From: a virus
UHGV virus genome: UHGV-1613795
Strand: one strand, 5' to 3'
DNA: 11,447 nucleotides
Shown here in pieces: positions 6,655 to 6,993 of this stretch (positions are counted from its first letter, which is position 1; the number at the start of each line of letters is the position of its first letter). The notes under the pieces were generated by a model. It was not told where the DNA came from, did no database searches, and worked only from the letters and a program-made list of their open reading frames with translations. The position numbers were made by a program, and so were the translations under genes.

Positions 6655-6975
6655 ATGGCTGAAAAGCAGGTTAAAGATTACGAAAAGTTTGTTGTGCGTT
6701 TCCCTGACGGGATGAGGGACGCGATTGCGGAGAGAGCCAAACGAAACGGGCGCTCTATGAACTCAGAGATTGTGCAGATACTGGAAGATGCCTTGAATGC
6801 AGAAAATACTCTTGGGGAAATAGCAGACAAAATCAACAGCGTCTCGGTTCCGTTAAATGTTGATGCGCTAGTTCAACTTCAAGCCCAAGTGATCGCCATG
6901 CAAAAAGAAATACAGGAAAAGTTCAGAGAGCAGAACGAAAAGTTGAGAGAACTGCTAAACAAAAAACCCACCTGA
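6655..6975 (+). CDS. mnt: Mnt-like ribbon-helix-helix repressor
   Basis: 106-aa ORF with ATG at 6655 and GAGGTG upstream. N-terminal region KFVVRFPDGMRDAIAERAKRNGRSMNSEIVQILEDAL closely parallels P22 Mnt as I recall it (HFNFRMPMEVREKLKFRAEANGRSMNSELLQIVQDAL), followed by a predicted coiled-coil C-terminus. Transcribed divergently from arc-like/ant, as in P22 immI. Predicted beta-strand residues differ from P22 Mnt, so operator specificity probably differs. Confidence 0.8.
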   Translation: MAEKQVKDYEKFVVRFPDGMRDAIAERAKRNGRSMNSEIVQILEDALNAENTLGEIADKINSVSVPLNVDALVQLQAQVIAMQKEIQEKFREQNEKLRELLNKKPT

Positions 6976-6993
6976 CGGTGGGTTTTCATTTTT
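6961..6993. terminator. Bidirectional intrinsic terminator between convergent mnt-like and transglycosylase genes
   Basis: AAAAAA (6961-6966), stem CCCACC (6967-6972), loop TGAC, stem GGTGGG (6977-6982), then TTTTCATTTTT (6983-6993). The mnt stop codon lies in the loop. A/T runs on both flanks allow termination in either direction. Confidence 0.65.

Follow-up and report, generated by a model that had tools for sequence, protein, structure and literature searches.

A probable entry terminator at the upstream edge of a P22-type antirepressor cassette within a prophage tail operon

The closest described counterparts of the locus considered here lie in the late operons of P22-like phages, where the cassette of repressor and antirepressor genes has been named the 'ant moron' and where, in P22, it affects how often polymerases initiated at PLate reach the tailspike gene (Villafane et al., PMC2629481). 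As that paper relates earlier work, tailspike gene 9 of P22 is controlled by termination and antitermination across the ant moron (Adams, Brown & Casjens 1985, via PMC2629481), and the morons of lambdoid phages are late-operon inserts with their own promoter and terminator that are expressed independently (Juhala et al. 2000, via PMC2629481). For phage L, intra-operon terminators have been proposed to stop transcription that proceeds without gp23/gp24 antitermination (bioRxiv 10.1101/2020.10.05.325894), and in phage epsilon34 a Rho-independent terminator is annotated on the late strand, overlapping the mnt stop codon (EU570103, 15029-15050; Villafane et al. 2008, PMC2629481). Here we analysed a stretch of 11,447 nucleotides from the virus genome UHGV-1613795 (the whole stretch is referred to below as the window), which derives from a lambdoid, contractile-tailed Escherichia coli prophage and carries a hairpin at positions 6961-6993. 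We consider it likely that this hairpin is the entry-boundary terminator of a P22-type immI region, or ant moron, that lies between tail and baseplate genes in a Q-dependent late tail operon.

Intrinsic terminators that work in both directions between convergent genes of E. coli were reportedly described by Ju et al. in 2019. As at such convergent pairs, a single GC stem-loop with an A-tract and a T-tract would serve both transcription units of the window, but here one of the units is a long, antitermination-dependent late operon, and only one of the two directions is conserved across relatives. The convergent E. coli class has also been documented by Wang et al. (bioRxiv 10.1101/2022.10.23.513370). 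The likeness to lambdoid morons lies in an autonomous and highly mosaic cassette that sits within a late operon and has promoters of its own and terminators at its flanks; whereas the classical moron has a terminator at its own 3' end, the cassette of the window adds one at its 5' edge, facing incoming late transcription.

The resemblance to epsilon34 is closer still. Its hairpin, AAAAAACCCACC-TGAA-GGTGGG, has the same A6-CCCACC / GGTGGG stem with TGA in the loop and the same Lys-Lys-Pro-Thr (KKPT) end of the overlapping gene, and, as in the window, it is convergent with a late-strand gene and forms the upstream edge of a mnt-arc-sar-ant-t_ant cassette. The two differ in the loop (TGAA in epsilon34, TGAC in the window) and in the plus-strand T-run, which epsilon34 does not have (d+ -26.8; d+ and d- denote the d'Aubenton-Carafa terminator score on the mnt strand and on the late strand, the plus and minus strands of the window). 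They differ further in the Mnt protein, which is of the 83-amino-acid (aa) P22 type in epsilon34 and a 106-aa Mnt-like protein with another C-terminal domain in the window, and in the virion, epsilon34 being a P22-like podovirus and the window's prophage contractile-tailed. The immI region of P22 (BK000583) shares with the window its gene set and gene order (arc and sar being candidates in the window), an ant gene co-directional with the surrounding late operon and a mnt gene opposed to it, a t_ant terminator just before the next late gene, and a late operon that needs a Q-type antiterminator (gp23 in P22, a predicted need in the window). In P22 itself, mnt ends in KKTT and the hairpin is decayed (L006, locus 2000-2025, minus strand); unlike in the window, mnt is followed by orf59a and then by a separate annotated mnt terminator, and the decayed hairpin is consistent with a mnt transcript that runs through orf59a to its own terminator. 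The insertion site also differs, lying between ejection-protein gene 16 and the tailspike gene in P22 and between a tape-measure-like gene and the baseplate genes in the window. The hairpin, the ant moron and gp23/Q read-through are already known for P22-like phages, and the biology described here is ordinary in that sense; it opens no new question and overturns nothing. What we add, the statistics on the polarity of the hairpin and a terminator-encoded KKPT tail, is small.

The hairpin stands where two genes of the window converge:

6961..6993, both strands: hairpin terminator with A-run, stem, TGAC loop and T-rich tail (scored and folded)
6655..6975, plus strand: Mnt-like ribbon-helix-helix (RHH) repressor gene, 106 aa (Pfam Arc PF03869, 1.6e-19)
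7044..8078, minus strand: 3' fragment of an SLT transglycosylase gene ('lytic tail protein', tape-measure-like; SLT PF01464, 4.6e-19; PHROG 2013, 5e-103)

An A-run AAAAAA (6961-6966) is followed by the 5' stem arm CCCACC (6967-6972), the loop TGAC (6973-6976), the 3' stem arm GGTGGG (6977-6982) and the plus-strand tail TTTTCATTTTT (6983-6993), giving a stem of 6 bp with five G-C pairs that is closed by a tetraloop and has a U-tract directly 3' of it on either strand (UUUUUUGUUU on the minus strand, UUUUCAUUUUU on the plus strand). An earlier note on this DNA, made from its letters alone, had placed a GC-rich 6-bp stem flanked by an A-run and a T-run at the convergence of a mnt-like gene and a transglycosylase gene, with the mnt stop codon in the loop; the letters at 6961-6993, the TGA at 6973-6975 and the open reading frames (ORFs) at 6655-6975 (plus) and 7044-8078 (minus) agree with that description. 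The name transglycosylase is supported by the SLT domain (PF01464), but what the window holds is just the 3' 57% of a 604-aa protein and not a full gene.

A generic promoter/terminator consensus scan was judged unspecific (14 terminator-like sites against 9.4 ± 3.0 in shuffles), and a strict scored scan with shuffles was used in its place, in which sites across the whole 11,447-base window had to have a perfect stem, 5 bp or longer, and a d score above 0. Two sites only were returned, namely the hairpin at 6961-6993 (d+ 15.5, d- 39.6, the minus strand being the stronger) and a second site at 5407-5422 (d- 30.7, minus strand only), whilst 100 dinucleotide shuffles averaged 0.05 sites on any strand, with bidirectional sites in 0/100. 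The hairpin folds at -15.1 kcal/mol on the plus strand (z -3.1; 1/200 shuffles equally good) and at -20.2 kcal/mol on the minus strand (z -3.8; 0/200 shuffles). A search of the whole window against Rfam gave no match at the gathering score, so the hairpin carries no named RNA family; its only likeness was to the generic terminator end of sroH, at 18.4 bits against a gathering score of 80. Judged by these scores, the hairpin is predicted, far beyond chance, to be an intrinsic (Rho-independent) terminator, and its sequence is that expected of a bidirectional terminator of a convergent gene pair. The earlier claim of termination on both strands is in keeping with the two d values, each of which is above 0.

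Across relatives, the two directions of this putative terminator are very unequally kept. When viral contigs were scanned with a DNA pattern, 110 of 111 unique contexts had d- above 0 and 20 (18%) had d+ above 0, and with a pattern free of the A-run an upstream A-run was found in 94/148 contexts compared to a downstream T-run in 12/148. The Stx phage 2851 illustrates the asymmetry, with a plus-strand tail of CAUAAUCC (d+ -47.9) and a late-strand tail of UUUUUUAUUU (d- 41.0), and the same holds for the E. coli prophage KCJ3K291 and for epsilon34. Of the 63 contexts with enough flank, 56 had genes coded against the direction of mnt at both of its sides, and in 62 this was true of the downstream side. 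In a set of Mnt-like homologues gathered by protein similarity and counted by reading the listing, the hairpin was found in 29 of the 36 assessable distinct 3' contexts, lying in frame or, in two groups, just past an earlier stop, and accompanied by the A-run every time. The pair outside the core stem covaries (G..C 44/45, A..T 55/70), which is supportive rather than decisive as the counts come from related sequences, and the loop bases vary with pairing kept (TGAC, TGAA, TGAT and a CTGA register variant). As the late-strand U-tract is near-invariant and the mnt-strand one is rare, the conserved role is therefore predicted to be that of stopping operon transcription that enters the cassette. 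The conserved and stronger activity appears to be that on the late-gene (minus) strand, directed against the operon rather than the overlapped gene, and the bidirectionality in the window appears to be a local feature supplied by the junction sequence TTTTCATTTTT.

Comparison with relatives also indicates to which module the hairpin belongs. The nearest intact relative is a prophage of E. coli Z1323CEC0001 (L001), with approximately 97.5% identity over window positions 5979-8155; identity is 99.1% over 6300-7400, complete in the 161 nt around the hairpin and about 90% on the baseplate side. The same mnt-arc-ant cassette is present in phage 2851, an Stx-converting siphovirus, and in other E. 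coli prophages including KCJ3K291, and in these two the nucleotide homology to the window ends right after GGTGGG. In the prophage of E. coli STEC299, with which the tail module alone is common, homology begins at window position 7003. Because cassette homology stops after GGTGGG and tail-module homology starts at 7003, the hairpin is assigned on sequence to the cassette and not to the tail module.

The remaining features of the cassette, read from the hairpin towards the baseplate genes, are as follows:

6575..6635, between the divergent mnt and arc genes: promoter/operator region with direct repeats and a palindrome
6392..6553, minus strand: putative Arc-like small RHH repressor gene, 53 aa (PHROG 582 'Arc-like repressor', 1.6e-10)
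6322..6388, plus strand: candidate sar-like antisense RNA at the arc-ant junction (Rfam RF00262)
5442..6320, minus strand: Ant antirepressor gene with Bro-N and P22AR C-terminal domains (P22_AR_C, 5.2e-28; Bro-N, 7e-20)
5405..5424, minus strand: t_ant exit terminator (ACCCAGCUUCGGCUGGGU + UUUUGUUU; d- 30.7)

Together with the hairpin and the Mnt-like gene, this content identifies 5405-6993, on sequence grounds, as a putatively complete P22-type immI or 'ant moron' cassette with defined edges, inserted in the tail operon with ant co-directional with the surrounding late genes and mnt opposed. The Ant protein matches PHROG 245 (3.8e-108) and is 83% identical to P22 Ant over its C-terminal 171 aa. 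The t_ant hairpin folds at -19.5 kcal/mol (z -4.3) in a region homologous to the annotated ant terminator of P22 and epsilon34, and the 3' region of ant has 95-97% nucleotide identity to that of epsilon34, Emek and Kapi1, where the terminator is annotated. Late-strand terminators at both entry and exit were likewise found in the L001 prophage, phage 2851 (L003), KCJ3K291 (L004) and epsilon34 (L007). In Edwardsiella phage GF-2 (L005), where a related mnt/arc/ant cassette occupies the corresponding position of the tail operon, the late-strand terminators that flank it (3526-3539 and 5619-5633) are unrelated in sequence to those of the window, which suggests that the entry/exit layout has been convergently retained there.

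From the anatomy, scores, conservation and polarity of the hairpin, the identities of the surrounding genes and the Q gene of an intact relative, the following sequence of events can be proposed. In a lysogen, unmodified RNA polymerase arriving from the tail genes would form the CCCACC/GGUGGG hairpin followed by UUUUUUGUUU and be released within the last mnt codons, which it reads in antisense. This entry stop would shield mnt from convergent transcription and would bar read-in transcription of arc-ant that bypasses Mnt/Arc control, whilst transcripts from Pant would stop at t_ant, such that the hairpin and t_ant would make the cassette an insulated unit. During lytic growth, Q-modified polymerase would pass both terminators and continue to the baseplate and fibre genes. 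On the plus strand, the hairpin could also end the mnt transcript, with a lower score and with partial suppression by the ribosome at the TGA; such termination is probably reduced when mnt is translated, as expected by analogy because the mnt stop lies inside the loop (PMC4824070). In the system studied there, the tR2 terminator was nearly completely repressed a few bp from a stop codon and reached maximal efficiency beyond about 30 bp (Li et al., PMC4824070). On the minus strand, the SLT stop codon (7044-7046) lies 58-61 nt upstream of the hairpin, and at a distance of approximately 60 nt the hairpin should be unhindered by ribosomes.

The earlier note had further argued that the hairpin, if efficient on the minus strand, would stop late transcription ahead of the baseplate and fibre genes, which would then need either antitermination or an internal promoter. 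The higher late-strand score (d- 39.6 compared to d+ 15.5) favours the first part of that argument. Of the two remedies it offered, antitermination, in the form of terminator read-through, is the one that stands. The internal promoter for the baseplate genes was rejected, as only about 20 nt separate the end of t_ant from the baseplate ATG at 5385, which leaves no room for one; the generic scan gave no passing promoter-like site on the minus strand in 5385-6960. Given that t_ant lies approximately 20 nt from this ATG, every baseplate transcript must therefore cross a terminator. A search for a late antiterminator, also advised in the earlier note, found no Q gene within the window, but L001 encodes a Q-family antiterminator (PF06530, 1e-24) upstream of its lysis, head and tail genes. 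As a separate observation, L001 has a further strong terminator on the late strand at 29994-30007 (minus strand; GCCGCAGTAGCGGC, d- 32.6), with head-morphogenesis genes on either side, and this is predicted to be another intra-operon terminator that Q-modified polymerase must pass.

An entry-boundary terminator of this kind would explain how a strong terminator can stand amid morphogenesis genes without harm to a Q-dependent phage. Its value for annotation is that 5405-6993 is delimited as an antirepressor cassette and, if confirmed, the locus would provide an example of how inserted cassettes keep read-in transcription away from a dangerous gene, ant being an inducer of prophages. As a tentative generalization, which we hold to be possible but somewhat doubtful, ant-type cassettes of enterobacterial temperate phages would carry a polar 'entry-gate' terminator aimed at the late operon, selection on the antisense strand would have fixed KKPT in divergent Arc/Mnt repressors and at least one CI-like repressor, and the gate would silence the antirepressor against read-in in lysogens and be opened only by Q- or gp23-modified polymerase. 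If true, such a gate would represent a design rule, not remarked on before, for morons that lie within antiterminated operons.

Several considerations weigh against an entry-boundary terminator or narrow its reach. Every functional statement made on this locus is drawn from sequence scores and analogy. With a stem as short as 6 bp (about -10 kcal/mol), termination could be partial. The window itself has no Q gene and carries deletions, and the consequences for the late operon concern its intact relatives. The cassette of STEC299 (L002) keeps its exit terminator without a strong entry terminator and the P22 copy is decayed (ACCACC TGAC GGCGGG, with two stem mismatches), such that the entry terminator is not universal and is therefore not essential for an ant cassette. 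The motif is moreover so generic across unrelated bacteria that identity of sequence does not prove common descent: in bacterial contigs, at one genome per species, it was a generic intergenic terminator in 110/121 cases and was tied to RHH genes only in Enterobacterales. The same count led to rejection of the idea that the approximately 20-nt motif is a unique mobile element, since most of its occurrences are generic intergenic terminators of unrelated taxa. Finally, the A-run also encodes two Lys codons, and coding constraint could explain part of its conservation. An A-run kept purely for these codons is a weakened proposition, as 44/116 unique contexts are non-coding and the hairpins that follow an earlier stop keep the A-run.

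Amongst the other explanations, the hairpin could primarily serve to end the mnt transcript on the plus strand, with its effect on the late strand incidental to the palindromic form of terminators, and we regard this as improbable. The plus-strand T-run of the window with its d+ of 15.5, the position of the hairpin at the mnt 3' end in most contexts and the dedicated mnt terminator annotated in P22 would all fit such a role, but about 82% of unique contexts have no plus-strand U-tract (d+ above 0 in 20/111), whilst the late-strand one is kept in 110/111. In Stx phages, for example, the sequence is GGTGGGCATAATCC, with d+ -47.9. The stop codon, furthermore, lies in the loop, where ribosomes repress termination (PMC4824070), and the epsilon34 annotation puts the terminator on the late strand. 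Very unlikely, in our assessment, is an account in which the approximately 20-nt palindrome is chiefly a 'linker' homology for phage recombination that swaps repressor/antirepressor cassettes, with termination secondary. In three contexts, mosaic junctions do coincide exactly with the 3' end of the stem, RHH genes whose C-terminal domains differ greatly are followed by the same sequence, as is even a 275-aa CI-like repressor, and L065 and L066 keep the 5' arm with the 3' arm replaced. Covariation of the outer pair and loop variation with pairing kept nonetheless point to selection on RNA structure and not on sequence identity. GF-2 has a non-homologous hairpin at this place, and in distant bacteria the motif has arisen independently as a generic terminator. 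Recombination at the hairpin is compatible with an entry-boundary terminator rather than opposed to it.

The persistence of the hairpin at the mnt 3' end where the plus-strand U-tract is missing could also be expected if it does not terminate at all and instead acts as a 3' stem-loop that guards mnt or SLT/tail mRNA from exonucleases after processing. Stable 3' stem-loops commonly stabilize bacterial mRNAs; however, the uninterrupted late-strand U6 right after the stem, a defining feature of intrinsic terminators, is nearly invariant and the d score is well above threshold, making this explanation very unlikely. A chance palindrome without function has in its favour the many false positives of the loose scan, with 14 terminator-like sites against 9.4 expected, but is effectively refuted by the 0/100 shuffles that held a bidirectional site under the strict settings and by the retention of the hairpin, with covariation, in more than 100 distinct phage contexts. 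An entry-boundary terminator thus remains our preferred explanation.

Over residues 6-48, which form the DNA-binding domain, the 106-aa Mnt-like protein is 47% identical to P22 Mnt (PDB 1mnt, 3.2e-6), and its C-terminal domain is unrelated to that of P22 Mnt. The A-run and the 5' arm of the hairpin form the last four codons of its gene (Lys-Lys-Pro-Thr). In 72/116 unique contexts, an ORF of at least 60 aa ended inside the loop, and the listed representatives of these ORFs were nearly all RHH repressors with a common N-terminal DNA-binding motif and very different C-terminal domains. Lys-Lys-Pro-Thr ends are common to these repressors because their ORFs read into the same terminator, its A-run and 5' arm, and the terminator direction kept across phages dictates the KKPT end of the repressor. 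Amongst repressors of viral contigs (loci L008-L207), the KKPT end produced by reading into the terminator was seen, for example, in L062, L067, L112, L116 and L153. The L116 protein, a 275-aa helix-turn-helix (HTH) protein ending in KKPT, looks CI-like by inspection. In some homologues (the L077 and L082 groups), an identical hairpin follows just after an earlier stop, with the A-run still there.

The interval that separates mnt from arc contains two exact copies of an 18-bp direct repeat, AGCAATATGCCATCATTG, at 6591-6608 and 6618-6635 (27 bp apart; 0 expected in shuffles), together with a palindrome GGCATAATGCC at 6575-6585. These are probable Mnt/Arc operators, in a layout unlike Omnt/Oarc of P22, the operator role being assigned by analogy with P22 Pant/Pmnt. 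The 53-aa Arc-like protein scored 17.5 bits against Pfam Arc, below the cutoff of 20.4, and is 38% identical to P22 Arc over 29 aa. The sar candidate aligned with RF00262 over its full length at a sub-threshold 28.5 bits (gathering score 43; E 0.026), is preceded at 6286-6314 (plus strand) by a promoter-like GTGAAA-17-TATACT with the TG of an extended -10 element, and ends in a hairpin with a U-rich tail.

Related cassettes occupy varied tail contexts. In phage 2851, the cassette sits between minor tail protein and C40 peptidase tail genes, and its mnt-like gene (L003, NC_049943; locus 4208-4653) carries no annotation in the RefSeq record. STEC299 has a different cassette at the same SLT/baseplate site (L002, 3282-6043), in which an HTH-domain repressor replaces Mnt and the P22AR-C protein is shorter, and which also contains a small ORF and two extra genes.

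Compared with L001, the window has lost two segments. Deletion 1 spans 3.27 kb (L001 21857-25122), has its junction at window 8153-8155, and takes the tail sheath (DUF3383) and tube genes, two small genes and the N-terminal 43% of the SLT protein, whose gene is full length (1815 nt, 604 aa) in L001, L002 and L004. The junction is flanked by the ORFs 7044-8078 and 8113-8691, and the 3' end of the neck-terminator gene is altered. Neither 5,426 complete E. coli genomes nor the IMG/VR loci that were fetched gave a match to this junction. Deletion 2, of 0.77 kb (L001 26805-27577; window approximately 9955-9956), truncates the major capsid gene in its 3' part and the DUF4054 gene at its 5' end and removes a small gene, and window positions 9042-9551 have no homology to L001. 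The prophage of the window is probably a defective one, unless the window represents an unusual assembly, and late-gene expression from this prophage itself may be vestigial.

The tail and baseplate genes on either side of the cassette are arranged on the minus strand. Upstream of it lie genes for a neck terminator protein, a DUF4054 protein, a cement protein and the SLT 'lytic tail protein'. Downstream, the module opens with the following gene:

4570..5385, minus strand: first baseplate-module gene after the cassette (PHROG 1830, 2.3e-74; weak Dit-like match)

Its counterpart in L001 is annotated 'phage baseplate protein', and beyond 4570 the minus strand continues down to position 481 with genes for baseplate hub, wedge, J-like (Baseplate_J) and DUF2612 proteins.

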